IMG/VR virus record: IMGVR_UViG_3300027798_000020
Span: 47,101 to 111,100 of that record
Length of the DNA: 64,000 nt
Origin: a virus
Strand: one strand, 5' to 3'
The stretch's first letter is position 1. Every line of letters starts with the position of its first letter. The position numbers and the translations under genes were made by a program. This document shows, piece by piece, positions 6,049-63,882 of this stretch. Under the pieces are notes generated by a model that ran no database searches, was not told the origin of the DNA, and was given only the letters and a program-made list of their open reading frames with translations.

Positions 6049-6073
6049 TCTATGTTCCTCCTTGGAGTTTTAT

Positions 6074-6361: not shown

Positions 6362-6416
6362 ACAACTATTTACATTAAGGTTATAAAATACTATTGATAA
6401 ATATCTCATAGGACCT

Positions 6417-6743: not shown

Positions 6744-6746
6744 AAT

Positions 6747-27069: not shown

Positions 27070-27299
27070 TGCACCCATTTGCCAGTGACCTATCGCAACT
27101 AAAGGATGGTGAATTGGAAGCTAAGGTGCATGAGTTAACTAGAAAATACTTTATCACCTACAATCCCGAAGTTCGTTCTCAAATAGTATTGTTTTTAGAA
27201 ACTTACAAAGAAGAGATACGAGTTCGGCAAGCCAAATTATGGCAATCACAACAGGCGCAAGTCAGTAATGGACTTGACAAATTAATCAAAGTCAACTAA
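27069..27299 (+). CDS. Hypothetical protein
   Basis: Coupled 76-aa helical ORF. Confidence 0.65.
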   Translation: MHPFASDLSQLKDGELEAKVHELTRKYFITYNPEVRSQIVLFLETYKEEIRVRQAKLWQSQQAQVSNGLDKLIKVN

Positions 27300-27302
27300 A
27301 AT
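27274..27302 (+). promoter_or_regulatory. sigma70 promoter, probably producing a leaderless mRNA
   Basis: TTGACA(27274)-17 bp-TAAAAT(27297); ATG begins 7 nt after the -10 box; no SD. Confidence 0.65.
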
Positions 27303-27308
27303 GTTGAC

Positions 27309-33660: not shown

Positions 33661-35211
33661 ATGGCAAATATAGTAATATGTGCAGGTATAACATTTTCAA
33701 CTGCTCATATGAGACCAGTTGGAGCTTTTCAATTAGCAAATGTTCTTAGACGAGCAGGATACACAGTTCAAGTAATTGATTGTTGGCCGTGGATTGCCGA
33801 CATGGGGGTGGAGGTAGTTAAAAGAGTATTAGAACACTTTGTAAACGAGGATACCTTGTGGGTTGGATTCAGTTCAACTTGGCTTACTAAAATTAAACAA
33901 CCAAAGTCAACTATTGGTTCAATATACAGTGATCTCGACAAATTAATTGAAAATACATATATCTTTGACCCAGAAGAATTAAACAATCTTAAAAGTCATT
34001 TAAAAACTCGAAGCCCTAATTGTAAATTTGTGCTAGGAGGAGGTAGAGCTACATTAGGAAGAACTGGCAAGGTTCCGCCATTTATTGATTGTTTTATTGA
34101 AGGGTATGCTGACACTACTGTGTTAGAATGGACCAAATATTGCCAAGGTAAAAATCCGTTCTTGCCTGTAACTAAGAACGCAGACGGGTCGATTAGCCTT
34201 ACTCATGATCACAAGGCTAGTAGCTTTGACTACAACAACCATAAATTTAATTGGCATGATAACGATATGGTTGGTCAAGGCGAAGCACTGCCTATGGAAA
34301 TTGCCCGAGGATGCATTTTTAGTTGTGCATTTTGTGCATACCCATTAAATGGTCGAAAGAAATTAGATTATCTTAAAGACCCAATTATTATACGTCAACA
34401 GCTAGAAGAAAACTACGAAAAATTTGGTACTACTCATTATTGGTTTCTAGATGACACCTTTAACGACAGTATAGATAAATTAAAAATTCTTAATCAATCA
34501 GTATTTTCAAAATTACCGTTTAAGGTTAATTTCTCTGCATTTATGCGACTTGATTTAATAAATGCACATCCAGAATCTATTGACTTGTTAAGCGAGATGG
34601 GGTGCGGTGGAATAAGTTTTGGAATCGAATCGTTGAACTATGAATCAGTAAAGGCCATAGGCAAAGGCATATCTAGGGATAAAATTTTTAATACCTTAAC
34701 AAAAATTAAAGAAAAAATGCCCAATGCCATTGTTGACTCTCAGTTTATTTTAGGGTTACCGTACGAAACACGGGAGACTGCCGAGGATTGGCTTAAAGAA
34801 ATTGAACATCCGGATTACCCGTTACATAATATTAAAATTCATACGTTGACTATGAATACCGTGTCAGGATACGAAAATATTTGGTTAAGTCATTTTGAAA
34901 AAAATCCAGAAAAGTACGGTTATACGTTTCCTACAGAAAATAAGACCTATTGGGTCAACAACATGAATTTCAGTAGAAAAGAAGCGTTTGAAATAATAAA
35001 AATGCATCAGAATTTTATCGATACTAAAAACGGACACGGTGGCGAGGGGTGGTTAGGCTATGCAGGAATTAGAAATATGGGGGTTTCTGAGGAAACTGTT
35101 AAAGAACTGTATAGTATGCATAGATTATATAGAATTCCGCGAGTAAATGAGATTAGACGACAGTTTACAAGTACATATATCCAAAATTTGTTAAAATTGG
35201 ATCCACAATAA
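33661..35211 (+). CDS. Cobalamin-binding radical SAM protein
   Basis: B12-binding-like N-terminus (LANVLRRAGYTVQVID, VGFSST, VLGGG); EIARGCIFSCAFC; DDTFND; FGIES. Confidence 0.85.
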   Translation: MANIVICAGITFSTAHMRPVGAFQLANVLRRAGYTVQVIDCWPWIADMGVEVVKRVLEHFVNEDTLWVGFSSTWLTKIKQPKSTIGSIYSDLDKLIENTYIFDPEELNNLKSHLKTRSPNCKFVLGGGRATLGRTGKVPPFIDCFIEGYADTTVLEWTKYCQGKNPFLPVTKNADGSISLTHDHKASSFDYNNHKFNWHDNDMVGQGEALPMEIARGCIFSCAFCAYPLNGRKKLDYLKDPIIIRQQLEENYEKFGTTHYWFLDDTFNDSIDKLKILNQSVFSKLPFKVNFSAFMRLDLINAHPESIDLLSEMGCGGISFGIESLNYESVKAIGKGISRDKIFNTLTKIKEKMPNAIVDSQFILGLPYETRETAEDWLKEIEHPDYPLHNIKIHTLTMNTVSGYENIWLSHFEKNPEKYGYTFPTENKTYWVNNMNFSRKEAFEIIKMHQNFIDTKNGHGGEGWLGYAGIRNMGVSEETVKELYSMHRLYRIPRVNEIRRQFTSTYIQNLLKLDPQ

Positions 35212-49568: not shown

Positions 49569-52235
49569 TTGAGTTATGTAGACGCATGGTTCAACCGTGA
49601 TGAAGATGTCATCAAGATTGTTGAACGAAATAAGAAAGGTGAGCGGGAGTACAAAGACTATCCTGTTAAACACACTTTCTACTATAAAGACCCTAAGGGC
49701 AAACATCAATCAATTTACGGAGATCCACTTAGCAGGATTGTCTGTAAGAACACTAAAGAACTACGCAAAGAACAAGCTATCAATTCAGGTAAGCAATTAT
49801 TTGAAGCTGATATCAATCCTATCTTTGTATGTTTAAGTGAACACTATCTAAATCAAGATGCTCCAAAACTAAACGTGGCGTTTTGGGATATTGAGGTGGA
49901 CTTTGATCCAGAACGTGGCTATGCATCACCAGATGATGCGTTTATGCCAATTACTGCCATCGCTGTCCACCTACAATGGTTAGATACCCTTGTATGTTTA
50001 GCTGTGCCTCCTAAGACTATGACAATGGAGCAGGCCAAAGAAGCCGTTGCTGAATTTCCTAATACATATCTATTTGCAAAAGAATCAGAGATGTTAGACA
50101 TGTTCTTGGATTTAATTCAAGATGCTGACATTCTAAGCGGTTGGAACAGTGAAGGCTTTGATATGCCCTATACTGTAAATCGTATTACTAAAGCATTAAG
50201 CAAAGAAGATACACGTAGACTGTGTTTGTTTAACCAATTTCCAAAAAGACGAGAATACGAAAAGTTTGGACGAGATTCTGTAACCTTTGACCTGTTAGGG
50301 CGGGTACACTTAGATAGTCTTGAATTGTATCGCAAGTACACATATGAAGAGAGACATAGTTATCGATTGGATGCTATTGCAGAATATGAACTTGATGAGC
50401 GTAAGACTCCGTATGAGGGGTCGTTAGATCAACTTTATAATCATGACTTTAAAAAGTTTATTGAATATAACAGACAAGATACGGCACTGCTAGACAAACT
50501 AGATAAAAAGTTAAAGTTTATTGACCTTGCCAACACACTGGCACACGAATGTACTGTGTTACTACAGACTACAATGGGTGCTGTGGCTGTAACCGAACAG
50601 GCTATCATTAACGAAGCACACCGCAGAGGTTTCCAAGTTCCTAACAGAACTAAAATGGACGAACGAGAAGACAGTCAAGCGGCTGGTGCGTATGTTGCCT
50701 ATCCTAAAGAAGGCATTCACGATTGGATTGGATCACTAGACATTAACAGTCTGTACCCAAGTGCCATTCGTGCGCTTAACATGGGACCGGAAACTATTAT
50801 TGGCCAGTTACGCCCAACTATGACAGATGAATACATTCAGGCGCACCTTGCCAAAGGCAAATCGTTTGCGGCTGCGTGGGAAGGTATGTTTGGCTCATTA
50901 GAGTACACTGCGGTCATGAATGAAGAAATTGGAACAGAGATTGCCATTGATTGGCAAGATGGTTCTAGTGACAATCTAAGTGCAGCCGAAGTATATAAAT
51001 TAATTTTCGACAGTCATCAACCTTGGGTATTAAGTGCCAATGGAACTATCTTTACCTACGAGAAAGAAGGTATTATTCCTGGTTTGTTAAAACGTTGGTA
51101 TGCTGAACGTAAAGAGATGCAGGCCAAACTAAAAGAATGTATTGCGGCAGGAAACAAAGTAGAAGAAGAATACTGGGACAAGCGACAACTAGTTAAGAAG
51201 ATTAACTTGAATAGTTTGTACGGTGCTATTTTGAATCCAGGATGCAGATTCTTTGATAACAGAATTGGCCAATCAACAACATTAACCGGACGTGCTATTG
51301 CCAAACATATGGCTAGTAAGGTAAACGAAATTGTAACAGGCGAATTTAATCATATAGGCAAAGCTATTATCTACGGTGATACTGATTCGTGTTACTTTAG
51401 TGCATATAAGACATTAGAAAATGAAATTAATGCAGGGCAATTGCCATGGACCAAAGAAAGTGTAGTTCAACTATACGACCAAATCGGTGAAGAAGTTAAC
51501 TCAACATTCCCACAGTTTATGTTAGATGCGTTCCATTGCCCGAAAGCACGTGGTGAAGTTATTAAGGCAGGGCGAGAAATTGTTGCCAGCAAAGGCCTGT
51601 TTATTACTAAGAAACGTTATGCAGTCCTTTACTATGATAAAGAAGGAAAACGTACAGATGTAGATGGCAAGCCAGGCAAGATCAAAGCTATGGGCCTTGA
51701 CCTAAAGCGTAGTGATACTCCAGAATTTATTCAAAACTTTTTAAGTGATGTTCTTGAGAAGGTCTTAACTGGCGCTACTGAAGAAGATGTACTTAATCAC
51801 ATTAGTGAATTTAGATTAAAATTCAAAAGCAGACCTGGTTGGGAAAAAGGCAGTCCAAAACGTGCTAACAAGATTACTGAGTATCAAGAAAAAGAACGCA
51901 AAGCTGGAAAAGCAAACATGCCAGGACACGTTCGTGCCAGTATTAATTGGAATACGTTAAAAAGAATGATGGGAGACAAATACTCAATGGGTATTACTGA
52001 TGGGGCTAAGGTTATTGTATGTAAACTTAAACAAAATCCTATTGGCTTTACATCTGTTGCGTATCCAGTTGACGAGCTGAGGTTGCCGCAATGGTTTAAA
52101 GATTTGCCATTTGATCATGCAGAAATGGAACAGACTATTATAGATAATAAGTTGTCCAACTTGATCGGAGTTCTTCATTGGGATGTTACTAGCACTGAAG
52201 AAAAAAATACCTTTAACAGTTTATTCGAGTTTTAA
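49569..52235 (+). CDS. Family B DNA polymerase (T4 gp43-like)
   Basis: Exo DIEV, GWNSEGFD, YN..D; pol DINSLYPS, KKINLNSLYG, YGDTDS, KKRY; TTG start with SD. Confidence 0.95.
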   Translation: MSYVDAWFNRDEDVIKIVERNKKGEREYKDYPVKHTFYYKDPKGKHQSIYGDPLSRIVCKNTKELRKEQAINSGKQLFEADINPIFVCLSEHYLNQDAPKLNVAFWDIEVDFDPERGYASPDDAFMPITAIAVHLQWLDTLVCLAVPPKTMTMEQAKEAVAEFPNTYLFAKESEMLDMFLDLIQDADILSGWNSEGFDMPYTVNRITKALSKEDTRRLCLFNQFPKRREYEKFGRDSVTFDLLGRVHLDSLELYRKYTYEERHSYRLDAIAEYELDERKTPYEGSLDQLYNHDFKKFIEYNRQDTALLDKLDKKLKFIDLANTLAHECTVLLQTTMGAVAVTEQAIINEAHRRGFQVPNRTKMDEREDSQAAGAYVAYPKEGIHDWIGSLDINSLYPSAIRALNMGPETIIGQLRPTMTDEYIQAHLAKGKSFAAAWEGMFGSLEYTAVMNEEIGTEIAIDWQDGSSDNLSAAEVYKLIFDSHQPWVLSANGTIFTYEKEGIIPGLLKRWYAERKEMQAKLKECIAAGNKVEEEYWDKRQLVKKINLNSLYGAILNPGCRFFDNRIGQSTTLTGRAIAKHMASKVNEIVTGEFNHIGKAIIYGDTDSCYFSAYKTLENEINAGQLPWTKESVVQLYDQIGEEVNSTFPQFMLDAFHCPKARGEVIKAGREIVASKGLFITKKRYAVLYYDKEGKRTDVDGKPGKIKAMGLDLKRSDTPEFIQNFLSDVLEKVLTGATEEDVLNHISEFRLKFKSRPGWEKGSPKRANKITEYQEKERKAGKANMPGHVRASINWNTLKRMMGDKYSMGITDGAKVIVCKLKQNPIGFTSVAYPVDELRLPQWFKDLPFDHAEMEQTIIDNKLSNLIGVLHWDVTSTEEKNTFNSLFEF

Positions 52236-52236
52236 T

Positions 52237-53010
52237 ATGAAAATAATTATTGCAGGTTACGGATTTGTTGGCAAGGCGGTCACTAATGCTATTAAAACAA
52301 AACATGAAATAGTAATAGTGGATCCAGTGTGCAGTGAAAATACAATTAAAGATCATCACGATGCAGATGGTATTATTGTTTGCGTATCTACACCTAATAC
52401 AGATGGCGGGTTTTGTGACCCATCAAATATTATTAATGTACTGGATCAAGTACCTGTGTTTATGCCAATTCTAATAAAAAGCACAGTAAGTCCGGGCGTA
52501 GTAGATGTTATAACAGAAATGTTTACTGACCATAGTATAGTGTATAGTCCAGAATTTTTACGTGCTCGTAGTGCCAATATTGATTTTTTAAATCAAAAAT
52601 ACGTTATCCTCGGTGGGGAAGATCCTGAATGTTTTTGGCAGGAACTATTTTTAGGCACACTGCCAAATTGTAAAATAGCGTTCAATTGTACCGCTAAAGA
52701 ATCAATGTTAATAAAATATTCTGTGAATAGTTTTTTAGCACTGAAGACCAGCTTCTTTAATCAGATATATGATATCTGCCAAAAGGAAGATTTAAATTTT
52801 GATGCTGTTAGACACCTGATTAGTCAGGATCAACGGATAGGTAGTGATCACACTATGGTGCCTGGACCAGATGGAATGCGAGGATGGGGAGGGCATTGTT
52901 TCCCTAAAGATACAGATGCATTTACGTATTGGGCAGACCAAATTGGGGAATCGGCTACACTTGTTAAAACGGCAATAGAATATAACAAAAAAGTAAGAAA
53001 AACCTCTTGA
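52237..53010 (+). CDS. UDP-glucose/GDP-mannose dehydrogenase family protein (short form)
   Basis: GYGFVG, CVSTP, IKSTV.PG, SPEFL, K...NSFLA, GWGGHCFPKD. Confidence 0.85.
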   Translation: MKIIIAGYGFVGKAVTNAIKTKHEIVIVDPVCSENTIKDHHDADGIIVCVSTPNTDGGFCDPSNIINVLDQVPVFMPILIKSTVSPGVVDVITEMFTDHSIVYSPEFLRARSANIDFLNQKYVILGGEDPECFWQELFLGTLPNCKIAFNCTAKESMLIKYSVNSFLALKTSFFNQIYDICQKEDLNFDAVRHLISQDQRIGSDHTMVPGPDGMRGWGGHCFPKDTDAFTYWADQIGESATLVKTAIEYNKKVRKTS

Positions 53011-53035: not shown

Positions 53036-53055
53036 AGATAAACATGGAGAATCAT

Positions 53056-53787
53056 ATGAAAGATATTTTACAAGACCTAGTTGCACACACGCATAGTCTA
53101 GGATTTTTACCGCTAGTTAAAATTAGCGGAAGTGACTCGGATACAGTAATCGAGTCAATGGCAGAGGATCGGTCTGTTGTAGTTAACGCTAAAACCCACA
53201 CCGCAGTTCCTGCATTTGAAGGTACATTTGGTATGCCTAACTTGGATAAACTCAGTATTCATTTAAGATGTCCTGAATACAAAGAGGGTGCAGAAATTGA
53301 TGTTGTCAGACAGAATAGAAACGGTGACGATATTCCTACAGGTATCCACTTTAAAAACAAAGAAGGGGACTTTGTTAATGACTATAGATTTATGAACTCA
53401 GAAATCATTAACGAAAAACTTAAGACTGTAAAGTTTAAAGGTGCCAAGTGGGATATTGAATTTCAACCTAACGTGTCTAGTATTCAAAGATTGAAGTTCC
53501 AGGCACAAGCACACAGTGAAGAGCCAGTATTCCAAGTAACTACTAAAGGTGATGACCTAGTGTTTAGCTTTGGTGATGCCAGCACACACGCAGGTAGCTT
53601 TACCTTCCAAGCAGGGGTTACAGGCAAGCTAAAACAAACATGGTCATGGCCAGTCCAACAGGTTATGAGTATTCTTAATCTAGACGGTGACAAGACTATG
53701 CGTATTGCAGATGTTGGTGCATTGCAAATTACAGTCGACAGCGGCATGGCTGAATACAACTATACACTACCAGCTCAAAGCAAATAA
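53056..53787 (+). CDS. Probable sliding clamp (gp45/PCNA-like)
   Basis: About 243 aa, alternating alpha/beta pattern, FGMPNL..L and terminal Y.Y.LPA; near polymerase, clamp loader in window; weak motif evidence. Confidence 0.5.
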   Translation: MKDILQDLVAHTHSLGFLPLVKISGSDSDTVIESMAEDRSVVVNAKTHTAVPAFEGTFGMPNLDKLSIHLRCPEYKEGAEIDVVRQNRNGDDIPTGIHFKNKEGDFVNDYRFMNSEIINEKLKTVKFKGAKWDIEFQPNVSSIQRLKFQAQAHSEEPVFQVTTKGDDLVFSFGDASTHAGSFTFQAGVTGKLKQTWSWPVQQVMSILNLDGDKTMRIADVGALQITVDSGMAEYNYTLPAQSK

Positions 53788-55487
53788 TGAATAAAAACTT
53801 AACAGCTACTCAACACGACTATGCTGTGTTTTTGCCAGCAACTTCAGGATTCTATGCTACATTTATCGGCAAGCAACGGCACGGAAATTATGTAGATCCT
53901 GCACGTATTCCTAGCGTGTGGGGTGCTGGTATGGAAAGTCTAAACTATTTAGAACCTGAAAAGGGAGAATTCTACTATAAGTGGTGTCTCTATTCAGCAG
54001 GTCACGCTAACTTAGATCTTACTAAGAAAGACGATAGTGAAGATATGTTCCGTAATAGAGACCGTAGTACAAGTTGGGTACTAGGCGACTCAGGCGGATT
54101 CCAGATTGGTAAAGGTGTTTGGGAAGGTGAGTGGCGAGATCCAACTGGGCCAGAAGTAAAGGCTATGATGGCTGAAGCTGTTGCCAAAGGTATTGAACTA
54201 GTACCAGTCATTGACCCCACTGGTAATCATGCTATGGATAAGAAAGGCAACCTTAAATACACTAAGGTTGATCATGTAAAGCAGTATCAAGCAAGACTAG
54301 ATGCGGCTCATAAAAAGCGTACACAGGTATTAACCTGGATGGATACACTTATGGATTACGGCATGGTGCTTGATATTCCTGCGTGGGTTGAACGTAGTCC
54401 TGTTGGGCGTAAAGCTACGGGGATCGAATCATATGATCAAGCTGTAGAAGCAACCAAATACAACAACGAGTATTGGATCAAACATCGCACTGGTGCTTGT
54501 AAGTTCTTAAATGTTCTGCAAGGTGAAACACACAAACAAGCCGATGATTGGTATAGTAAGATGAAAGACTTTTGCGATCCTAAAGTCTACGGCGACAAGG
54601 CGTTCAACGGCTGGGCTATGGGTGGGCAGAATATGTGTGACATCCATTTGGTATTAAAAAGATTAGTAGCATTGAAGTTTGACGGACTCCTTGAAAAGGG
54701 TCATCAAGACTGGATGCACTTCCTGGGCACCTCTAAGTTAGAGTGGGCAACTTTATTAACTGATATTCAACGAGCAGTGAGAAAATACCATAATGAAAAC
54801 TTTACCATATCTTTTGACTGCGCCTCACCGTTTCTGGCAACAGCAAACGGACAAATCTACATCCAAACTGAACTCGAAGATAGAACAAAATGGGTCTATC
54901 GCATGGTGCCATCTGCTGATGACAAAAAGTACGCAACAGACACAAGACTGTTCAAAGACGCAGTCATCCAAGACAGAGTTTTTGCAAACTTTGAATCAAG
55001 TCCCCTTATCGATCAGTGCCAAATAAAAGATGTTTGTATATACAATCCGGGCGACCTAAATAAGATTGGTAAGGAAGGCAGGACGTCATGGGATTCGTTT
55101 AGCTATGCTATTCAAATGGGTCATAACGTATATGCTCACTTGAACGCTGTTCAACGTGCTAATCAAGCATACGATAACGGCAAGGTTCCGGCTATGCTAG
55201 TACAAGAAAAGTTCGATCGTGTCTATTTTAGAGATGTAGTTGATGCCATTTTCTCTACACCTAATCGTGCAGATGCAGAATTGATCATTGAGTCGTTTGA
55301 TAAATTTTGGCAGTCTATTATTGGCACACGTGGTGCTACTGGTAAGAAAACAGTTAACGCGGCAACACAATTTGCCAATCTGTTTGACTTTGAAGAAGAA
55401 ACCACTGTACAATTAGAGCACTCCGAAGAATTTAGTGAAGAAGAAGAACAATTATTAGACCAGCTAGAATTACAGGTAAAAGAATGA
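53787..55487 (+). CDS. dpdA: TGT-superfamily DNA 7-deazaguanine transglycosylase (DpdA-like)
   Basis: TGT signature DSGGFQ, plus MVLDIP, NVLQG, GWAMGG, HFLG, SFDCAS; queD and folE in window. Confidence 0.75.
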   Translation: MNKNLTATQHDYAVFLPATSGFYATFIGKQRHGNYVDPARIPSVWGAGMESLNYLEPEKGEFYYKWCLYSAGHANLDLTKKDDSEDMFRNRDRSTSWVLGDSGGFQIGKGVWEGEWRDPTGPEVKAMMAEAVAKGIELVPVIDPTGNHAMDKKGNLKYTKVDHVKQYQARLDAAHKKRTQVLTWMDTLMDYGMVLDIPAWVERSPVGRKATGIESYDQAVEATKYNNEYWIKHRTGACKFLNVLQGETHKQADDWYSKMKDFCDPKVYGDKAFNGWAMGGQNMCDIHLVLKRLVALKFDGLLEKGHQDWMHFLGTSKLEWATLLTDIQRAVRKYHNENFTISFDCASPFLATANGQIYIQTELEDRTKWVYRMVPSADDKKYATDTRLFKDAVIQDRVFANFESSPLIDQCQIKDVCIYNPGDLNKIGKEGRTSWDSFSYAIQMGHNVYAHLNAVQRANQAYDNGKVPAMLVQEKFDRVYFRDVVDAIFSTPNRADAELIIESFDKFWQSIIGTRGATGKKTVNAATQFANLFDFEEETTVQLEHSEEFSEEEEQLLDQLELQVKE

Positions 55488-55744
55488 CACTCCCCGACGA
55501 AAGATATCGTGCAGTAAAAATGGCTCGCCAGTTTTTGCAAGAACTAATGGATCCGCAAAAGACTCCTAAGGTTCCTGCAATTATACGCAGTCAAGCTAGA
55601 GGTGTATTACGCCACTATCCCAGTGATTGGGATATGATGCAGGTCTGTGAAGCTAGTCCACATATATTTCAAACACAAATGGAAGATGTTACTAGATTAT
55701 TTAGGCGGTACGAGCAAGCAAAGGACAAAAAAGATGAAGCGTAA
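55484..55744 (+). CDS. Small phage protein
   Basis: MTLPDERYRAV...RHYP motif; coupled. Confidence 0.7.
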   Translation: MTLPDERYRAVKMARQFLQELMDPQKTPKVPAIIRSQARGVLRHYPSDWDMMQVCEASPHIFQTQMEDVTRLFRRYEQAKDKKDEA

Positions 55745-56252
55745 TTACAATGATGGAGTTACTACGGGAGTAAACTTTTTTGTTGGCACTGAAATTGAAC
55801 ATACTCCTGCGTTTGGAAAATTAAGTTTGTTTGTTGTAGGAGTACACCCTTGCAATGCTATAGAAGAATTCTTTAAAGATAAAGAATGTAAGCATATTTT
55901 CTTTGGTGCTAATCATAGTTTTAATCCACGGACCTATGAAGAACACAAAGCATGGGAAGAAATGATCTTTTATTTCCTTAAAAAAGGTGTTCTATGCTCC
56001 TTAGATATTCCGTTTAATCAAATTGAAGAATTTCACGAAAGCGGTTATTGTGAGTATGATAACTTTATTCCGCAAATACGTGTGCCAATTCCATATATTA
56101 AATTATGGAACTATAATACAATGCTTAAAATTGATGACAAGGATTTTAAAGCAACAAACCCAGGTGTGTGGTCCCACAGTCTGCACTCACTTATGGATCG
56201 TAAAAACTTCACAGACTGGTCACAATATAACAATGACGAGATTGTACAATGA
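55734..56252 (+). CDS. Hypothetical protein in deazaguanine locus
   Basis: Start at ATG 55734 overlapping upstream ORF; FFVGTEIEHTPAFG..SLFVVG, HIFFGAN. Confidence 0.65.
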   Translation: MKRNYNDGVTTGVNFFVGTEIEHTPAFGKLSLFVVGVHPCNAIEEFFKDKECKHIFFGANHSFNPRTYEEHKAWEEMIFYFLKKGVLCSLDIPFNQIEEFHESGYCEYDNFIPQIRVPIPYIKLWNYNTMLKIDDKDFKATNPGVWSHSLHSLMDRKNFTDWSQYNNDEIVQ

Positions 56253-56671
56253 TAGTTGGTAAAATAGAAAATTTAAATCCTATGATTATTAAACAAGATA
56301 TCCGCCCTAACAAAATGATTTGGGTTACCTTTCAGAAAGAAGGTATGCACAAATATCCAGCCGCACTTACAGATCCAGCACTTGCTACAGGTGATGAGTA
56401 CGATGTAAGTTTTCTAGGATATCCGCATCGTCACATCTTCCACTTTAAAGTTTGGATTTCCGTAGAACATTCAGACCGGGCGATTGAATTTATTCAATTT
56501 AAACGCTGGTTAGAAAATCTGTATAGTCAAGGAACACTCCAGTTAGACTATAAATCCTGTGAGATGATGGCAGAAGATTTGTATGAACAGATTGCCGCAA
56601 AACACCCAGGACGAGAAGTTTGGATCGAAGTGTCAGAAGACGGCGAAAATGGTGCTCTAATTAAGTTCTAA
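56249..56671 (+). CDS. dpdL: QueD-like T-fold protein, probable CDG decarboxylase DpdL
   Basis: LGYPHRHIF fits the LxxxHRHxF motif I recall for DpdL; SCEMMA and VSEDGENG T-fold features; a separate canonical QueD exists. Confidence 0.6.
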   Translation: MIVGKIENLNPMIIKQDIRPNKMIWVTFQKEGMHKYPAALTDPALATGDEYDVSFLGYPHRHIFHFKVWISVEHSDRAIEFIQFKRWLENLYSQGTLQLDYKSCEMMAEDLYEQIAAKHPGREVWIEVSEDGENGALIKF

Positions 56672-56672
56672 T

Positions 56673-56981
56673 ATGTCTAAGCCTTTGCCCCGAACTACTA
56701 TTCGCCAGATGCCACCTCCTCATTCTAAGAACAAGTTTAAATATTGTTTTGAGATGTCGCACTATGGTGGAGAGCAACGGGCAGAGTTAGAAGCGTGGTG
56801 CTTGGCAGATCCAGAAAATCGCCGTTGGGGCAATATGGGCTATGTTGAGTGTAATCTTGATAGTGATGCTATTGAGTTTATTACCACTTGGGGTATCAAC
56901 TGGCGGCATAAGACTCAAAACATTGAGCGAGAAGTTAAATCAGAACTGGGTTATAGTAGAGTAGGATTGGGGAATGTGTAA
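56673..56981 (+). CDS. Hypothetical protein (cassette cargo)
   Basis: 102-aa coupled ORF. Confidence 0.6.
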   Translation: MSKPLPRTTIRQMPPPHSKNKFKYCFEMSHYGGEQRAELEAWCLADPENRRWGNMGYVECNLDSDAIEFITTWGINWRHKTQNIEREVKSELGYSRVGLGNV

Positions 56982-57226
56982 TGTGGAATCTGTTTAAGCG
57001 ATTACCGCCAGAACCAATAACTAACAGATACAAGACATTGGACTGGTCTCAAGTGACTACACTGGAAGAAGTTATCTACATACTCAGTAAAATGCGTCTT
57101 ACTAAAAATATTATGATTGACGAAGATTGTTGGAATGATCCTAAAATCAAAAACTTGCTTGGTAAAGATATTACTGAAACAACCTATATTGGATTTGAAA
57201 AAACTACAAAGGTTTACAAAGAATGA
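56981..57226 (+). CDS. Hypothetical protein (cassette cargo)
   Basis: 81-aa coupled ORF. Confidence 0.6.
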   Translation: MWNLFKRLPPEPITNRYKTLDWSQVTTLEEVIYILSKMRLTKNIMIDEDCWNDPKIKNLLGKDITETTYIGFEKTTKVYKE

Positions 57227-57450
57227 AAAAGATACCTATGTTGGAAAAGTTTGCCGCACAGAGTCTTGTGCCATATGATGGAGAACTCGTCTTCAGTAAA
57301 GAAAAGTTCGCCGAGTTGATTGTAAAGGAATGTTTAGGATGTTGCGAACAAGTTATCAGTGATCCTGTTCCCGAATCAGTTGATACTTGGTTGAATGGTG
57401 GCACACAATGTATGGCGGAGATTAAACAACATTTCGGAGTTGAAGAATGA
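57223..57450 (+). CDS. Small phage protein (EKFAELIVKEC...HFGVE type)
   Basis: Motif recurrent in small phage ORFs; coupled. Confidence 0.65.
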   Translation: MKKIPMLEKFAAQSLVPYDGELVFSKEKFAELIVKECLGCCEQVISDPVPESVDTWLNGGTQCMAEIKQHFGVEE

Positions 57451-57650
57451 ACGAATATTTTAAACAACAAATAGACGGTGGTGCTACTGATCAGTTTTTC
57501 TATGTTATTGAAAATAACGGCAAAGTAAGCATTGAACGCTATCGCGGCACATTAGACACACTCTCAGTTAATAATTTAGAGTTTGTAAGAATGTCAAAAT
57601 CTACACCAGTTTTTCGACCTGTTGAAGTTGAAGAAGTTTTTCCAAAGTAA
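57447..57650 (+). CDS. Hypothetical protein (cassette cargo)
   Basis: 67-aa coupled ORF overlapping the HNH 3' end. Confidence 0.5.
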   Translation: MNEYFKQQIDGGATDQFFYVIENNGKVSIERYRGTLDTLSVNNLEFVRMSKSTPVFRPVEVEEVFPK

Positions 57651-58197
57651 TGGAACATTTATTATACTTTGTGCGATTGGAATGCCGTGAAATCATTTGA
57701 AGATTTGAATAATGCCCGATTAATTCGGGCGGCACATTATTTAGGAAACCTTGATGTTTGCTATATTTGTGATCCAACTCGTATTCAGTTCCCCGCGGTA
57801 GCCCTAAAGGATTAATTTTATCATTATGATATATCCAACTATCTCTTGTAATTCTATCAACAATGTTTTCGTATGCTTCCCAGAGAGGACGCTGTTCGAT
57901 AGGAATGGTAGATTTAGCCTTGGAAATATTGTGTCCTTTTTGTCTACGCCAATTAGCATCAGTATGAAGTTCTTTGAGACTGGCATTTCCTCGTTCGCTC
58001 ATAGTTTTCATATGTTTGATTCTATCCGCTTTACTCATTCGTGCCTGTCGAGAGGCTTCGGCCTTCTTAGCGTGGCCCGGACATTGGGTAATTTTTTCAA
58101 CGCAACGCATCTGTTTGGAGTTCACACTTATGTAGAAGGCTTGACTTCCGCACAAAAAACAAGTATAATTAACATTAGTGGTAGTCAGTATAGGCAT
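57601..58197 (-). CDS. HNH-type homing endonuclease
   Basis: ELDHKYS...NLQMISRHSNRTK nuclease motif; N-terminal CxxC...C...C Zn region and basic linker; own late promoter TATAAATA (58220-58227, minus strand). Confidence 0.7.
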   Translation of the reverse strand: MPILTTTNVNYTCFLCGSQAFYISVNSKQMRCVEKITQCPGHAKKAEASRQARMSKADRIKHMKTMSERGNASLKELHTDANWRRQKGHNISKAKSTIPIEQRPLWEAYENIVDRITRDSWIYHNDKINPLGLPRGTEYELDHKYSKHQGFLNNVPPELIGHYSNLQMISRHSNRTKYNKCSITLEKLLQLQQVEKLV

Positions 58198-58230
58198 AAC
58201 TTATCTCTCTATCATTGTTTATTTATACAA

Positions 58231-58302
58231 AAGTATCCAGGCCGTGAGGTTTGGATTGAGGTCTCCGAAGACGGAGAAAATGGTTCATTTATCAAATATT
58301 AA
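58231..58302 (+). pseudogene. Orphaned 3' end of dpdL
   Basis: KYPGREVWIEVSEDGENGSFIKY* versus KHPGREVWIEVSEDGENGALIKF* (19/23 identical); no start or SD of its own. Confidence 0.85.
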
Positions 58303-58315
58303 TTAAGGACAGTAT

Positions 58316-58558
58316 ATGAAACCGGAAGTTGTTAAAATTTTTAACGATCTCGAAAACCTGCTAAATTTTTGCAGATTCGAACTCCTTCCATACAACCCGG
58401 CAGATCTCTATAATAGAGAAAGCCACGTATGGCGTTCATTTGAAAATAGCCGCAGACCTAAGCGTCCATGGAATGGCGAAAAGAAGCCCTGGACCGGTGA
58501 ACGTAAACCGTACCTAGGAAATAAGCCTAGATTTAATAACTCAAGACACGATGCTTAA
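58316..58558 (+). CDS. Small hypothetical protein
   Basis: SD AAGGA; IFNDLE.L..FCR...YNPADLY; basic tail with K(R/K)PW.GE repeats. Confidence 0.7.
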   Translation: MKPEVVKIFNDLENLLNFCRFELLPYNPADLYNRESHVWRSFENSRRPKRPWNGEKKPWTGERKPYLGNKPRFNNSRHDA

Positions 58559-59655
58559 TGAACGTATTTTTAGTTGATTTAGAAGCAGTTGAAACCAGGT
58601 ATACGGCGCAGTGGAAGCGCCATGTACCTACTTTACTTAAAAAGGCAGGACACAATGTTCAAGTTCTATGTGGGCCTACAGACATTCCTACAGCAACTAC
58701 TCCGGGTGCGTTCCTTAATTTTGGCGGTACCAACATTTATAAATCAGCACAAGTGGAGCAGATGGGTCGTCTATTTTGCGACGGAGCCGTTCATCCCGGT
58801 GATCACTTTATTTTTACTGATGCTTGGCACCCGGGTATCATTAACCTAAAGTATATGAGTGAATTGCTGGGCATTCCAGTAGTCACTCACGGCTTATGGC
58901 ATGCTGGTAGTTATGATCCGCAAGACTTTTTAGGACGTCTTGTAGGTAATAAGCCTTGGGTTAGACATGCTGAGAAGAGTTTCTTTCACGCATTTGATCA
59001 TAACTACTTTGCTACAGATTTCCATATCAAGTTGTTCTATACAAATTTACTAAATGATTATCCTACAGAAAATCCTTGGTATAGTGAACACTTAGAAGAA
59101 ATCCTAAATGGTGAAGATCCTAGATTTGTACGTACTGGCTGGCCTATGGAGTATATGCAGGATACATTGTTAATGTATAAAAACATGCCCAAGCGTGATC
59201 TTATTCTTTTCCCGCATCGTATCGCTCCAGAAAAACAAGTTGACATATTCCGTGATCTAAAAGAACACTTACCACAATATGAATTTGTTGTTTGTCAGGA
59301 TCAGCAACTTACAAAGAACGAGTATCATAATTTGTTAGGCGAGGCTAAACTAGTGTTCAGTGCTAACTTACAAGAAACACTTGGCATCAGTTGGTACGAA
59401 GGTGCCGTAGTAGATGCTATCCCTATGGTGCCAGATCGCCTAAGCTATAGCGAGATGGCATTTGATACATTTAAGTATCCTAGTGAATGGACTGAAAGTT
59501 TTGAAGCATACGAAATGTTTAGACCTGCTATATGTTATAAAATAACTCAATACATGGAAAACTATGCTTCTTTCTTGCCGCAAATAAGAAAACAAAAGGA
59601 TGCACTACATGAACAATTCTTCAGCGCAACCAAGCTACTCAATAACATTAGATGA
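58558..59655 (+). CDS. GT-B glycosyltransferase (GT4-like)
   Basis: FPHRIAPEKQ and ETLGISWYE (E-x7-E) donor-binding motifs; LSYSEM. Confidence 0.75.
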   Translation: MNVFLVDLEAVETRYTAQWKRHVPTLLKKAGHNVQVLCGPTDIPTATTPGAFLNFGGTNIYKSAQVEQMGRLFCDGAVHPGDHFIFTDAWHPGIINLKYMSELLGIPVVTHGLWHAGSYDPQDFLGRLVGNKPWVRHAEKSFFHAFDHNYFATDFHIKLFYTNLLNDYPTENPWYSEHLEEILNGEDPRFVRTGWPMEYMQDTLLMYKNMPKRDLILFPHRIAPEKQVDIFRDLKEHLPQYEFVVCQDQQLTKNEYHNLLGEAKLVFSANLQETLGISWYEGAVVDAIPMVPDRLSYSEMAFDTFKYPSEWTESFEAYEMFRPAICYKITQYMENYASFLPQIRKQKDALHEQFFSATKLLNNIR

Positions 59656-60013
59656 TTCCGGTGAGTTCTCATCTCAGAATGTATCTACTATGGTTGCATC
59701 AGATACAATTACTCTAAGCAATACCGGAGGTACTTATTTTTATAACACCGGTGCTGGTATAGGTGGTGTAGGTGCAACTGGTAGTTTTACTATAACAAAC
59801 GGTGGCGCAGTGTCTGGTACTATTAATACAGTAACACTCGATAGTTCACCGTATTACTGGAGTGACGAAGAATGGGTCAATTCATTTCCGCAATGGACAA
59901 GAATTCAAGAAATGTGCGAGCAGTATCCTGGATTGAAAATTGCATTTGAAAAGTTTAAAACTACTTATAAACTTGTGAAAGACGATTATGATAATCCAAC
60001 AGATAAAAAATAA
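59609..60013 (+). CDS. Hypothetical protein (T/G/S-rich N-terminus, CEQYPGL helix)
   Basis: Overlapping, coupled ORF; start uncertain. Confidence 0.55.
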   Translation: MNNSSAQPSYSITLDDSGEFSSQNVSTMVASDTITLSNTGGTYFYNTGAGIGGVGATGSFTITNGGAVSGTINTVTLDSSPYYWSDEEWVNSFPQWTRIQEMCEQYPGLKIAFEKFKTTYKLVKDDYDNPTDKK

Positions 60014-60467
60014 ATTCTTTTCTTTTTTAGAAAAGCATGATCGAAAAAGGATCATTATGGATCGAGTTGATAATCAACCCTATCTAGAAAGATATTATCT
60101 TTTTCTAAAAGATAGAAAAACGTTCCCGTTTAATGTATTTTTACATAAATTTTTAAAAGGTGATCCGGATGATATACACGATCATCCATGGCCGTATGCC
60201 ACATTGATTTTAAAAGGTGGTTATTATGAATGGACTCCTAACTTTGATTCAACTGGAGTCAAGATCAGTGAGACACGGCATTGGCGCAGGCCTGGTCATT
60301 TTCGTATTTGCAGTCCTAATAGCTATCATCGCATTGAGCTTAAAGCCGGTGTAACTGCATGGACCTTGTTTATGCCTGGTCCACAAAAACGAGAATGGGG
60401 ATTTCTTGTTGATAATAAATGGATTCACAATGACAGCTACTTACAAGAACGTAAACTCCGCGGTTAG
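59988..60467 (+). CDS. Cupin-fold protein
   Basis: HDHPW....ILKGGYYE...HRIEL...WTLF. Confidence 0.7.
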   Translation: MIIQQIKNKFFSFLEKHDRKRIIMDRVDNQPYLERYYLFLKDRKTFPFNVFLHKFLKGDPDDIHDHPWPYATLILKGGYYEWTPNFDSTGVKISETRHWRRPGHFRICSPNSYHRIELKAGVTAWTLFMPGPQKREWGFLVDNKWIHNDSYLQERKLRG

Positions 60468-60834
60468 TCCAGGATACGGAGCAATACCTTTAGTAAACTA
60501 TACTACTAACACTACGAACGGACAGTTTTTAACATCTACTGGTAGTAACGGTACTTCTTATTCTAATATTTGGGCTAATGGCACTGTCAATACCAATCCT
60601 GCATTAACTGTTAAACAAACCAATCCGCCAGAATTAGAAGTTACAGGTCGAATGGTTATTAACGGTAGAGATTTAGAAGAACGGTTAACCACAATCGAAA
60701 AAGTCTTGCAAATTCCCGAAAGAGATGTTAAACTAGAGGCTAAGCACCCAAAGCTAAAGAAATTGTATGACGAATACATTGCGGCATTGGGAAAATACAG
60801 AACATTTGAAACAATTAAAGGCGACGATGACTGA
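60430..60834 (+). CDS. Hypothetical protein
   Basis: T/N-rich N-terminus; LEERL..IE..L, LEAKHPKLKKLYDEY. Confidence 0.6.
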   Translation: MTATYKNVNSAVSPGYGAIPLVNYTTNTTNGQFLTSTGSNGTSYSNIWANGTVNTNPALTVKQTNPPELEVTGRMVINGRDLEERLTTIEKVLQIPERDVKLEAKHPKLKKLYDEYIAALGKYRTFETIKGDDD

Positions 60835-61081
60835 AGACAAAAAACTCAAAGTCGAATTTGCGCCAGGATGTTTTGATCATTTTGATGGCACTCAAGAAGA
60901 GCTTGATCAAATGATTAAAGACATTATGGACATGTTTGAGAACAAAAGTAAAGAAGAGCTCGAAGCTATGTCGACTCAAATTACTGCTGAAGATCTTGAC
61001 ACTCTCGATGAAGATGTGCAACAACAAATTGTTCGATCTTTGTCAGAAGATAATAGCACTACCAAAAGGAACATTCAATGA
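60827..61081 (+). CDS. Small acidic protein
   Basis: KVEFAPGCFD.FDGTQEELD. Confidence 0.65.
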   Translation: MTEDKKLKVEFAPGCFDHFDGTQEELDQMIKDIMDMFENKSKEELEAMSTQITAEDLDTLDEDVQQQIVRSLSEDNSTTKRNIQ

Positions 61082-61575
61082 ACAAGCGTTTAATAAAATT
61101 TAAAGAATTTAAATTGCTTGTTTTAAACATGTGTTCTACTATTCAACGTACTGGTTGGAAACCTGACTACATTGTAGGTATTAGTCGTGGTGGGTTATTG
61201 CCTGCTGTAATGATTAGTCAATATTTTAACATCCCTATGAAGCCGCTACAGGTTAGTCTTCGAGATAACATTGAAACTGTTAGCGATCTAGGAATGGCTG
61301 AAGATGCATATAATAATAAAAACATTCTCATTGTTGACGATATTAATGACCAAGGAACTACTTTAAACTGGATTATGAAAGACTGGCCAAGCGGTTGCTT
61401 TCCCGACGATCCTAAATGGGAAGGTGTCTGGGGTAATAATGTTAGGTTTGCTGTAGTCGTTGATAATCTTAGTAGTAAGTGCAATGTCGGAATGAATTAC
61501 TGGGGCATGGAAGTTAATAAAGCTGAGAAAGATGTTTGGATTGAATTTCCATACGAGGAATGGTGGGTTAAATGA
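61078..61575 (+). CDS. Type I phosphoribosyltransferase (xanthine/guanine PRT-like)
   Basis: IVGISRGGLLPA; PRPP loop ILIVDDINDQGTTL; WIEFPYE. Confidence 0.85.
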   Translation: MNKRLIKFKEFKLLVLNMCSTIQRTGWKPDYIVGISRGGLLPAVMISQYFNIPMKPLQVSLRDNIETVSDLGMAEDAYNNKNILIVDDINDQGTTLNWIMKDWPSGCFPDDPKWEGVWGNNVRFAVVVDNLSSKCNVGMNYWGMEVNKAEKDVWIEFPYEEWWVK

Positions 61576-61733
61576 CTAAAGATGAAATCTTACAAAGAAT
61601 ATCGCAAGTAAATGCAGACCTAGAAAAAGTAAAAGACATGCCTACTAACGCAGATCGTCATAGCGAATCGTTAAGAATGTATAGAGAATACTTACTAGAA
61701 CAACTTGCTGAGATTAAAGATGACCAACCTTGA
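61572..61733 (+). CDS. Small coiled-coil protein (not in ORF track)
   Basis: 53 aa MTKDEILQRISQVNADL...YREYLLEQL, overlapping both neighbours. Confidence 0.55.
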   Translation: MTKDEILQRISQVNADLEKVKDMPTNADRHSESLRMYREYLLEQLAEIKDDQP

Positions 61734-62094
61734 AAGGGCCTTAGATGAAAATCGAGCACCGTGGACTGAAATTGAATTCCGATCAAAAGACTTTTGGGTG
61801 TTTAGAGACGCATATCCAGTTACCCCCGGGCATTTGCTATTTGTGCCTACCGAAGAGCAAAGTGTTAATCTCTGGGAGTGCTTCAAAGCCGCATATAAAT
61901 TCGGGTTTGAAGGCGTTGAACTTGGACGGTGGGAAGCGTTCAACATCGGACAAAATGTTGGCGAGGCTGCTGGTCAAACAGTAATGTACCCACATGTACA
62001 TATGATTCCGCGACGCAAAGGAGATATGGATGACCCAAGAGGCGGTGTTAGACACGTTATCCCAGAAAAGGGTAATTACCGTAAAGAAGTTTAG
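61720..62094 (+). CDS. HIT family nucleotide hydrolase
   Basis: DAYPVTPGHLLFVP, NIGQNVGEAAGQTV, PHVHMIPR (first His of the triad replaced). Confidence 0.85.
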   Translation: MTNLERALDENRAPWTEIEFRSKDFWVFRDAYPVTPGHLLFVPTEEQSVNLWECFKAAYKFGFEGVELGRWEAFNIGQNVGEAAGQTVMYPHVHMIPRRKGDMDDPRGGVRHVIPEKGNYRKEV

Positions 62095-62287
62095 TTATTG
62101 TGTTCGAGTAGATTGGCACAATCAAGGAACATCGTGGTGGAATGAAACATGTGCCATGGTATTGGAAGTGTTTGGTTTACCCGGTGATAGGTTTGTCTAT
62201 CACCCATTTGAAGACTTTATGGAGTTTCATTTTAAAAATGAAAAAGACGAGCAGTTATGCCGCATACTATTAAGTGAACGACTATGA
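62030..62287 (+). CDS. Hypothetical protein
   Basis: WNETCA...EVFGLPGDRF...M.F.F; start uncertain. Confidence 0.55.
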   Translation: MTQEAVLDTLSQKRVITVKKFSYCVRVDWHNQGTSWWNETCAMVLEVFGLPGDRFVYHPFEDFMEFHFKNEKDEQLCRILLSERL

Positions 62288-62850
62288 CAGTGGTATTTAA
62301 TAACGGCTTTGAAACTTTTGAAGAATACGATTTTAGTTCGGTTATAACTTCTGACGATCACAATAGTGCAAAGTCACAAATTAGAGAATTTATTGATCAA
62401 GGTAGATATTTTAAAAATTCACCAAAGTATCAAACAGAAGTTAATTTGTTTGGAATCCAAGATCCTACTTGGTTAAAATTTAGAATGAGTTTTATCTTTA
62501 GTTGTTTTATGTATCTTGGAAAAGAAGTTCCAATTAAACAACTAATGGCTTGGAGTTTTATGACTTCAAACACTATTCAAGAAGATCGGGAAAGGCTCTG
62601 GCATACTCATCAATACGGTGAGGAGCGCACACTAAGTGGTGTGTACTATTTGCACATTCCTGATGATGTTGCAGACAAAACAGAATGTGGTACAGAATTT
62701 GCCTATAATGGCGTAGAAAATCTTGAAAGATTTAAATCTGTACCAAAAGATTTTACTTGGATTGTTTACCCTGGTAAAGTGTATCATAGGCCCATGATAC
62801 CACAATCAACTCAAGATCGATTTGTAATTGCAGCCGATCTTATTTTTTAA
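62284..62850 (+). CDS. 2OG-Fe(II) oxygenase-like (DSBH) protein
   Basis: WHTH, LSGVYYL, GTEF, YPG..YH, R.VIA motifs. Confidence 0.65.
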   Translation: MTVVFNNGFETFEEYDFSSVITSDDHNSAKSQIREFIDQGRYFKNSPKYQTEVNLFGIQDPTWLKFRMSFIFSCFMYLGKEVPIKQLMAWSFMTSNTIQEDRERLWHTHQYGEERTLSGVYYLHIPDDVADKTECGTEFAYNGVENLERFKSVPKDFTWIVYPGKVYHRPMIPQSTQDRFVIAADLIF

Positions 62851-62860
62851 GGAGAAATAC

Positions 62861-63082
62861 ATGAACGTATTAAATGAAGTTGTTAAAGAAAGCGAAGGAT
62901 TCCGTCTTCGTGTTAAAAGTTGGAAATGTGTTAGACCAGAAGATTATAATTCTGTAGAGTTTATACAGGAGAGTTTGAACAATGGCGAGGTTGTAGACAG
63001 CCAAACTTATAATTTCTTCATGACCAACGATGATGTCAAATCACTTTGCCAAATCTTAAACAAAATTCCCGATAATGTTTGA
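62861..63082 (+). CDS. Hypothetical protein
   Basis: SD AAGGAG before ATG 62861. Confidence 0.65.
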   Translation: MNVLNEVVKESEGFRLRVKSWKCVRPEDYNSVEFIQESLNNGEVVDSQTYNFFMTNDDVKSLCQILNKIPDNV

Positions 63083-63093
63083 GCAGAGAAAAC

Positions 63094-63123
63094 TTGACCT
63101 TGACCTAAATAAACCTATATACT
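63094..63123 (+). promoter_or_regulatory. Overlapping sigma70 and late promoters for folE
   Basis: TTGACC(63094)-18 bp-TATACT(63118); TAAATA at 63106. Confidence 0.55.
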
Positions 63124-63162
63124 ACTAGTATATGTCATCCACGACACTAACTCGGAGAATAA

Positions 63163-63882
63163 ATGTCAGAACTACATTATAAAGAAGAAGACGGACGACC
63201 TCTTAGCCAGGTTATCCGCAACAGGCTCAAACAAAATAACAAACGTTTCTGGGCTGGCGACAATATCAGCGAATACATTAGCGATGTTGAAAAAGATTCT
63301 TTAATCAACGAAGCAACAACAGCATTTGAACAAGTATTAGACACCCTGTTGATTGATCGAGAAACTGATCCTAACAGCAAAGGTACAGCAAGACGTCTTG
63401 CTAAAATGTACTTTAATGAAATAATGGCAGGAAGATATGAACCAGCACCAGACGCAACCGCGTTTCCAAATGACTCGACAGACCGTTATCAAGGTATGTT
63501 GGTTGTTCGTAGTGAGCTTCGCAGTATGTGTAGCCATCATCACCAACCCGTTGCTGGCGTTGCTTATATTGGTATTATTGCGGCTGAGAAACTCATCGGA
63601 CTTAGCAAGTATACAAGGATCGCTCAGTGGTGTGCCCGTAGAGGTACTCTCCAGGAGGAACTTTGTAATGACATTGCTAGGGAAATCCAAAAAGCAACCA
63701 ACTCAGAAAACGTAGCAGTATACATTCAAGCCACACACGGCTGTTGTGAAAACCGTGGTATTATGGCACACTCTAGTCTAACACAGACTACAGTACTTAA
63801 AGGCGCATTTAAAGATGATCAGGGTACAAAGAAAGAATTCTTTGACAATATCAAAATGCAACAAGAGTTTGCCCCACGTTAA
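63163..63882 (+). CDS. folE: GTP cyclohydrolase I
   Basis: SMCSHHHQP, IGLSKYTRI, LQEEL, HGCCENRG, EFF. Confidence 0.93.
   Translation: MSELHYKEEDGRPLSQVIRNRLKQNNKRFWAGDNISEYISDVEKDSLINEATTAFEQVLDTLLIDRETDPNSKGTARRLAKMYFNEIMAGRYEPAPDATAFPNDSTDRYQGMLVVRSELRSMCSHHHQPVAGVAYIGIIAAEKLIGLSKYTRIAQWCARRGTLQEELCNDIAREIQKATNSENVAVYIQATHGCCENRGIMAHSSLTQTTVLKGAFKDDQGTKKEFFDNIKMQQEFAPR

Follow-up and report, generated by a model that had tools for sequence, protein, structure and literature searches.

The stretch of DNA analysed here (the window) comprises bases 47101-111100 of the 111,100-base IMG/VR virus record IMGVR_UViG_3300027798_000020, i.e. the final 64 kb of that contig, and it carries a block of genes centred on a DpdA-like base-exchange enzyme, a DpdL and a glycosyltransferase (GT). 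The best explanation for this block, to which we would give a probability of roughly 0.55, is a module by which the phage exchanges the guanine of its DNA for a 7-deazaguanine, and into which the GT is built. All genes of the block run along the + strand, next to one for a family B DNA polymerase and one that is sliding-clamp-like. As the 111 kb record is 31% complete according to CheckV, the phage genome is estimated at about 350 kb, and the contigs of relatives are of similar length (353 kb, 98% complete; 345 kb, 94% complete). Megablast of the 10 kb region against cultured phages gave no match. Every gene listed in the initial annotation of this DNA was present on the + strand, at or near the position it had been given, and those on which the argument turns are the following.

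3708-4214, + strand: QueD / 6-carboxytetrahydropterin synthase family (PF01242 at 1.1e-13; QueD hidden Markov model (HMM) at 2.5e-78)
53787-55487, + strand: divergent DpdA-like protein of the tRNA-guanine transglycosylase (TGT) superfamily, 566 aa (motifs, fold and profile-profile match)
56249-56671, + strand: DpdL, a QueD-like T-fold protein and proposed decarboxylase of 7-carboxy-7-deazaguanine (CDG) (motif, phrog_17812 and homology to phage phiST)
58558-59655, + strand: GT4-like GT-B glycosyltransferase of retaining type, 365 aa (fold, EX7E motif and Pfam matches of the family)
63163-63882, + strand: FolE, GTP cyclohydrolase I (PF01227 at 4e-40)

The catalytic aspartates of TGTs lie in the motifs DSGGFQ and FDC(x)xP. 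The DpdA-like protein has both, as GDSGGFQ (D101) and SFDCASP (D344), and both are invariant in 17 homologues and align to the same motifs of DpdA from phages ACP17, X1 and BCSR5 (hhalign, 87% probability, E 4e-6). When the AF2 model of the protein (pLDDT 79) was compared with the PDB in Foldseek, the top 50 matches were all TGTs (E to 2e-7, target TM approximately 0.45-0.5). No match was obtained from Pfam, PHROG or NCBIfam, and searches of the PDB by sequence and by profile returned no TGT; only comparison of folds and of profiles with profiles found this superfamily. A homologue in Vibrio phage 2.275.O adjoins queF, a preQ transporter, queC and folE. Because of the TGT motifs, the Foldseek matches, the alignment to DpdA and the gene neighbourhood in Vibrio phage 2.275.O, we accept the product as a divergent DpdA-like enzyme, with guanine exchange in DNA as its predicted activity. 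Two DpdA-like forms with 35-41% mutual identity occur within the phage clade of the window (53787-55487 versus positions 5669-7213 of locus L052), and the neighbouring DpdL and GT are 80-85% identical where these forms differ. The inserting enzyme of the clade has either been swapped or evolves much faster.

DpdL was described as a PTPS/QueD paralogue without the catalytic Cys of PTPS and QueD, in which the signature LxxxHRHxF replaces the CxxxHGH of QueD (PMC10516641). In the window protein, the likely start of which is the Met at 56315, the motif LGYPHRHIF fits this signature. The protein matches phrog_17812 at 1.8e-33 and the DpdL HMM at 3e-64, and it is 34.9% identical to the DpdL of phiST (CGPG_00067) over 88% of the query (tblastn, E 2e-11) and 61% identical to gp166 of the Pseudomonas jumbo phage PA5oct. 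The CDG decarboxylase activity of DpdL is a proposal only, and a heterologous test of it was unsuccessful (PMC10516641).

Genomes with DpdL have been reported to contain DpdA, FolE, QueD and QueE and no QueC (PMC10516641). The initial annotation had not found queE and queC in the window, and neither QueE nor a true QueC was found anywhere on the 111 kb contig. In relatives, including those 98% and 94% complete, QueE is located approximately 5 kb downstream of the GT; in a relative with the same gene order it is calculated to lie about 1.2 kb past FolE, and the contig of the window ends 118 bases after FolE. It is therefore likely that QueE of this phage lies just past the contig end, so that queE should not be counted as missing from the phage. 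For QueC, the two near-complete relatives gave only partial PP-loop matches of about 60 aa. The combination of FolE, QueD and QueE without QueC fits the DpdL signature (PMC10516641), and the assignment as a QueC-less, DpdL-type 7-deazaguanine module is supported. Three radical SAM genes of the contig were considered as QueE and rejected as large B12-type or other enzymes. A 305-aa PP-loop protein was likewise rejected as QueC, as only about 60 residues matched, with 23 bits. One radical SAM protein (516 aa, window 33661-35211) has a B12-binding-like N-terminus; another (541 aa, G000:C1:24844-26469) is followed by the 305-aa PP-loop ATPase at 26450-27367 (locus L008), which matches only the first approximately 60 residues of QueC.

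The GT of the window has itself no Pfam match, and phmmer against the PDB gave nothing useful; 35 of 56 diverse homologues match PF00534 (Glycos_transf_1, best E 3e-8). The AF2 model built from the family alignment (pLDDT 95.9) has the two Rossmann domains of the GT-B fold. Its structural neighbours are sucrose-phosphate synthase (VIA Z 25.6, 316 aligned residues, rmsd 3.4), BshA (Z 25.1), MshA (Z 23.8) and also glycogen synthase (Foldseek and VIA; enzymes of the GT4/GT5 kind, Z 23-26), and the structure has no special likeness to the T4 DNA glucosyltransferases. GT4-like retaining GT-B enzymes are marked by an EX7E motif together with basic residues that bind the donor diphosphate. The motif is found here as ETLGISWYE (E273-E281), with E281 invariant in the 56 homologues and E273, R221 and K226 conserved in at least 90% of them. 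With its modelled GT-B fold, intact EX7E motif and conserved R221 and K226, the protein looks like an active nucleotide-sugar transferase.

As DpdL is a paralogue of PTPS and QueD, and UDP-glucose:tetrahydrobiopterin glucosyltransferase is among the structural matches of the GT (Z 20.6), FolE, the PTPS-like DpdL and the GT could in principle make a pterin glycoside comparable to the biopterin glucoside of cyanobacteria, in which case the GT would be unrelated to DNA. We regard this as highly improbable. The tetrahydrobiopterin enzyme ranks about 49th, among generic GT4 folds, and DpdL is without the catalytic Cys of PTPS and QueD. Moreover, the linkage of the GT to DpdA and QueE is just as tight, and neither of these takes part in making pterin glycosides; in phiST DpdL goes together with 2'-deoxy-7-deazaguanine (dDG) in DNA.

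The main result is the linkage of the GT to the deazaguanine genes in gene neighbourhoods. The GT adjoins DpdL or DpdA in seven lineages, namely the clade of the window, PA5oct, Phosso, ACP17, X1/BUDD, BCSR5 and BUCT-ZZ01. The gene orders in the cultured lineages are as follows (x, other gene).

PA5oct group: DpdA-GT-DpdL-x-SDR-PRTase-QueE (PRTase, phosphoribosyltransferase)
ACP17: QueD-x-FolE-gp122-DpdA-GT-DpdL-QueE
Phosso: DpdL-GT-x-FolE ... QueE
X1 / BUDD: FolE ... GT-DpdA-DpdL-QueE
BCSR5: DpdL ... deacetylase-x-GT-DpdA-x-QueE
BUCT-ZZ01: QueE-XGPRT-x-QueD-FolE-GT2-DpdA-DpdL-GT

Two unrelated-looking types of DpdA accompany the GT, the 566-aa type and the ACP17 type. For uncultured phages, a diverse set of 85 IMG/VR loci around the GT family and a close set of 80 related loci were used. 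DpdL is present in 76 of the 85 diverse loci, usually upstream of the GT with a median gap of 242 bp, and most of the nine loci without it are truncated at their edge. Membership of the GT in the deazaguanine module, as the initial annotation had proposed, thus holds in seven lineages and in most of the diverse loci, and its linkage with dpdA, absence of which in other genomes would have spoken against that proposal, was found there in varied gene orders. Single-protein scans with four distant GT representatives gave few or no viral loci.

The converse does not hold. Whole-record HMM searches, in which the positive controls matched, found no GT in the DpdL-bearing phages phiST, MA9V-3, D479, RHph_I1_18, Ahp1 and Bakedbeans, nor in Vibrio phage 2.275.O, which has the 566-aa DpdA and QueC/QueF and no DpdL. 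Among the phages examined, the GT is therefore seen only where DpdL is present, whereas DpdL occurs also without the GT, and because of this nesting the GT looks like an optional add-on that acts after DpdL. GT-plus and GT-minus phages interleave in the DpdL tree (four changes, no better than shuffled labels), which may hint at repeated gain or loss of an optional GT instead of a separate DpdL subfamily, a weak argument because the tree is small and the protein short.

The linkage bears also on the possibility that the GT has its target elsewhere (hydroxymethyl-pyrimidine DNA, host envelope sugars or protein) and stands beside these genes because they share an early nucleotide-metabolism region. 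T4-like phages often have DNA glucosyltransferases, and a distant GT homologue in Xanthomonas phage PhiXhv-12 belongs to a GlmS-deacetylase-GT set with no DpdL. On the other hand, the adjacency persists despite rearrangement of the gene order, with either of two DpdA types and in phages whose hosts belong to four phyla, and in cultured phages the GT family was found only with DpdL present. PF00303 matched no gene of the ThyA or dCMP-hydroxymethylase family in ACP17 or in the two near-complete relatives (98% and 94%), and hydroxymethylcytosine-type glucosylation was rejected as no ThyA-fold enzyme was found; the 2-oxoglutarate (2OG) oxygenase-like gene of the window is rare. A target outside the deazaguanine pathway is thus very improbable, and this reading and the pterin glycoside are both weaker than an action of the GT on the free base, which is considered below.

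In the window, dpdL and the GT gene are separated by an insertion, the parts of which are:

56672-58228, both strands: private insertion cassette with four small + strand open reading frames (ORFs) and one reverse HNH-like gene (alignment of relatives)
57601-58197, - strand: HNH-like homing endonuclease (motifs alone, ELDHKYS and SRHSNRTKYNK)
58229-58302, + strand: what is left of the original 3' end of dpdL (91-95% identity to that end in relatives)

The cassette was not found in any of 10 aligned relatives, its ORFs have no homologue in the 80 related loci, and the HNH-like protein has no Pfam match. The last approximately 24 codons of dpdL are present twice, in the gene itself (56598-56671, synonymously recoded) and downstream without a start (58229-58302), and this duplicated end is the footprint of a homing cassette that supplies its own replacement end. 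Without the cassette the order is dpdL, an 80-aa ORF and the GT, as in relatives, and the GT is accordingly two genes after dpdL, as the initial annotation had seen.

DpdL has other unusual neighbours and forms. A homing endonuclease is directly beside DpdL also in Vibrio phage D479. In the Vibrio phage Bakedbeans (L190:8212-9363) and the Chryseobacterium phage MA9V-3 (L193:8464-9345), DpdL is the C-terminal part of a protein of 383 and 293 aa, respectively; the N-terminal parts have no Pfam match, and that of MA9V-3 may be a second degenerate T-fold. In the GT-less Rhizobium phage RHph_I1_18, an Appr-1-p processing (macro domain) protein directly follows DpdL (L100:10435-11259).

On the basis of what the genes encode, of their intact catalytic motifs and of their linkage, we infer an order of reactions, an acceptor, a sugar and a product as follows. 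FolE, QueD and QueE would make CDG from GTP, and DpdL would turn CDG into 7-deazaguanine, as proposed for phiST. The TGT-fold DpdA-like enzyme would then swap 7-deazaguanine for guanine in DNA, and the GT4-like enzyme would move a sugar from a nucleotide sugar to the deazaguanine, most likely once it is in DNA. An XGPRT-like enzyme may recycle the released guanine. The deazaguanine in the DNA would then carry a sugar and conceal sites with G from the nucleases of the host. Action of the GT after DpdL, and probably after insertion, is suggested because the phages with the GT form a subset of those with DpdL and because the same DpdA types occur elsewhere with small bases. More specifically, and tentatively, as we put it at slightly under an even chance, the abundant aquatic giant phages of this clade and PA5oct, ACP17, X1, BCSR5, BUCT-ZZ01 and Phosso would replace G with a sugar-bearing 7-deazaguanine, possibly linked as a C-glycoside at C7; which sugar is used (hexosamine, uronic acid or deoxy sugar) may differ by lineage.

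Several points weigh against sugar transfer to the inserted base. In every GT-bearing phage the sugar-bearing base is a prediction from genes. Plain 7-deazaguanine has no hydroxyl or exocyclic amine in the major groove, and as there is no obvious acceptor on that side, the linkage would have to be a C-glycoside or be at N2 or O6, or else the product of DpdL would have to differ from 7-deazaguanine. We know of no precedent for a retaining GT4 enzyme that uses a carbon nucleophile as acceptor. With a median isoelectric point (pI) of 5.7 the GT family is acidic, and the closest GT structures act on small molecules. In addition, a single large clade accounts for most of the IMG/VR loci (4 clusters at 50% identity). 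Finally, dpdL and dpdA of ACP17 alone gave no dDG in E. coli (PMC10516641), a result that would suit a need for the GT; as dpdL and dpdA of phiST likewise failed there (PMC10516641), the failure is not specific to GT-bearing phages.

Some of these points fit equally well an enzyme that acts earlier, on the free base or a precursor before DpdA, so that either a glycosylated base is inserted or the sugar serves as a temporary handle, leaving plain dDG in the final DNA. The GT is structurally closest to GT4 enzymes that act on small molecules (BshA, MshA, sucrose-phosphate synthase and tetrahydrobiopterin glucosyltransferase), the family is acidic, the cluster includes a PRTase and a HIT nucleotide enzyme, and the absence of dDG with ACP17 dpdL and dpdA alone would fit as well. 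However, phiST replaces every G with dDG without any GT, which means that the GT is not needed to make or insert 7-deazaguanine, and the 566-aa DpdA type is found in Vibrio phage 2.275.O with QueC/QueF and without the GT, which suggests that this DpdA handles small bases. We consider action on the free base unlikely and still keep it as a live alternative, because of the lack of an obvious major-groove acceptor, the acidic GT and its small-molecule structural neighbours.

The remaining genes around the module in the window differ in how regularly they accompany it:

55734-56252, + strand: conserved 172-aa protein accompanying the module (in 64 of the 85 diverse loci)
58316-58558, + strand: conserved small protein with a basic pI of 9.8, encoded between dpdL and the GT gene (69 of 85)
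59988-60467, + strand: cupin-like protein (PHROG alone, phrog_4786 at 1.8e-37)
61078-61575, + strand: type I purine PRTase, XGPRT-like (PF00156 at 1e-12, 48 bits versus a cut-off of 26.3)
61705-62094, + strand: HIT-family nucleotide hydrolase/transferase, accessory (PF01230 at 1.9e-8)
62284-62850, + strand: weak 2OG-Fe(II) oxygenase-like protein (PHROG 81 at 3.9e-6)

Among the 85 diverse loci, DpdL (76) is followed by the small basic ORF and FolE (69 each), DpdA (65), the 172-aa protein (64), the PRTase (53), the cupin (48), the HIT protein (34) and the 2OG-like protein (4). The homologue of the 172-aa protein in ACP17 is gp122, encoded between FolE and DpdA; for the 172-aa protein itself, no match was found in Pfam, the PDB or the ESM Atlas. 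A possible extra enzyme in the DpdL pathway has been mentioned (PMC10516641), for which the 172-aa protein is a candidate. Its resemblance to the gene upstream of the GT in BCSR5/X1 was too weak and was not used (hhalign 44%, hmmsearch E 0.22). The best NCBIfam name for the PRTase is xanthine PRTase, below the cut-off of that model; its homologue is gp163 in PA5oct, and the BUCT-ZZ01 cluster has an XGPRT. Recycling of the released guanine would be a plausible role.

The cupin is limited to this clade and is present in none of the cultured lineages. The 2OG-like protein scores 18.8 bits against PF13759, for which the Pfam cut-off is 27, and its gene occurs in 4 of the 85 diverse and 7 of the 80 close loci; a TET-like reading was rejected because of this rarity. 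The cupin, HIT and 2OG-like genes are outside the core, and the 2OG-like gene is outside the module. The initial annotation had also offered elaboration of the base by the cupin and the oxygenase, or a second linked modification, and for these no support was obtained. What stands of its overall interpretation is a QueC-less, DpdL-type module that includes the GT.

The window gene at 53044-53787 directly precedes the DpdA-like gene, a position that it holds in several lineages. Its homologue in PA5oct, gp170, bears the annotation of a structural protein, and that in Phosso the annotation of a sliding clamp beta subunit. One further gene of possible relevance is located between the DNA polymerase and this clamp-like gene:

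52183-53010, + strand: nucleotide-sugar dehydrogenase fragment of the UDP-glucose dehydrogenase family, 275 aa (PF00984 at 4e-22; PF03721)

The fragment matches TIGR03026 at 1e-40 over profile positions 70-296 of 413 and has the N-terminal and central domains and no C-terminal domain. As it is present in 40 of the 80 close and 14 of the 85 diverse loci, it is possibly an accessory for the sugar donor and not a core gene. Other clusters have other sugar-handling genes. PA5oct gp164 is a fragment of an NAD-dependent epimerase/dehydratase (SDR), and the BUCT-ZZ01 cluster has a second GT. In BCSR5/X1 a PIG-L-like deacetylase with the motif APHVDDE is located beside the GT (with a Pfam score below the cut-off), and no such deacetylase was found in the clade of the window. 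Taken together, the sugar-handling genes in these clusters suggest real sugar transfer, with sugars differing between lineages. In PhiXhv-12 (228 kb; L198:4669-7903) the distant GT homologue forms a trio with GlmS and a BshB-like (PIG-L) deacetylase, and tblastn with DpdL found no match in this phage; the trio may serve a different, glucosamine-type modification.

The closest characterized system is that of the Cellulophaga phage phiST (PMC10516641), which has FolE, QueD, QueE, a DpdL with LxxxHRHxF, no QueC and an inserter of the TGT superfamily. In contrast to the window, phiST has no GT anywhere in its genome, its DpdA3 is short and its DNA carries plain dDG, whereas the window has the GT4-like enzyme, the conserved 172-aa protein and the 566-aa divergent DpdA. 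Among GT-bearing phages, gp168-gp162 of PA5oct resemble the window in the DpdA-like protein (30-32% identity), the GT (38%), DpdL (61%), the PRTase and then QueE, but differ in the order DpdA-GT-DpdL and in the SDR epimerase/dehydratase within the cluster. PA5oct DNA resists enzymes with G in their sites, and QueE and PTPS were noted in this phage (PMC12191111).

The alpha- and beta-glucosyltransferases of T4 (AGT and BGT) are likewise phage GT-B enzymes that place a sugar onto a modified DNA base against host nucleases. The likeness is one of mechanism: they have no sequence relationship to the window GT, which matches GT4, no enzyme for hydroxymethylcytosine supply was found in the near-complete relatives or ACP17, and the base to be glycosylated would be a purine analogue. 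BshA/BshB and MshA/MshB pair a GT4 N-acetylglucosamine transferase with a PIG-L deacetylase. They are among the top structural matches of the GT (Z 24-25), and the pairing recurs in BCSR5/X1 (GT with PIG-L-like deacetylase) and in PhiXhv-12 (distant GT with GlmS and BshB-like deacetylase). Their identity to the window GT is approximately 10%, the acceptors of BshA and MshA are malate or inositol phosphate, and the window has no deacetylase. In vertebrate tRNA, mannosyl- and galactosyl-queuosine carry a sugar on a 7-deazaguanine derivative in nucleic acid. These differ from the predicted base in being RNA and in having the sugar on the cyclopentenediol side chain, and no queuine side chain would be possible in the phage of the window because QueC and the later enzymes are absent.

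In the literature searched on DpdA/DpdL, deazaguanine, glycosyltransferase, PA5oct and MIJ3, no deazaguanine with a sugar was found to be described from DNA, in agreement with the initial annotation. To our knowledge, known phage DNA glycosylation is all on pyrimidines, and known DNA deazaguanines all have small groups. If true, the base predicted here would be the first glycosylated purine analogue in any DNA, and a new class of DNA base in which glycosylation and deazaguanine are joined. The consequences would extend to restriction, type IV and END-type nucleases, DNA glycosylase defences and the sequencing of environmental phage DNA, as well as to PA5oct-like phages under study for therapy. 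The modified G of PA5oct may be explained in this way, as may the absence of product from ACP17 dpdL and dpdA alone in E. coli.

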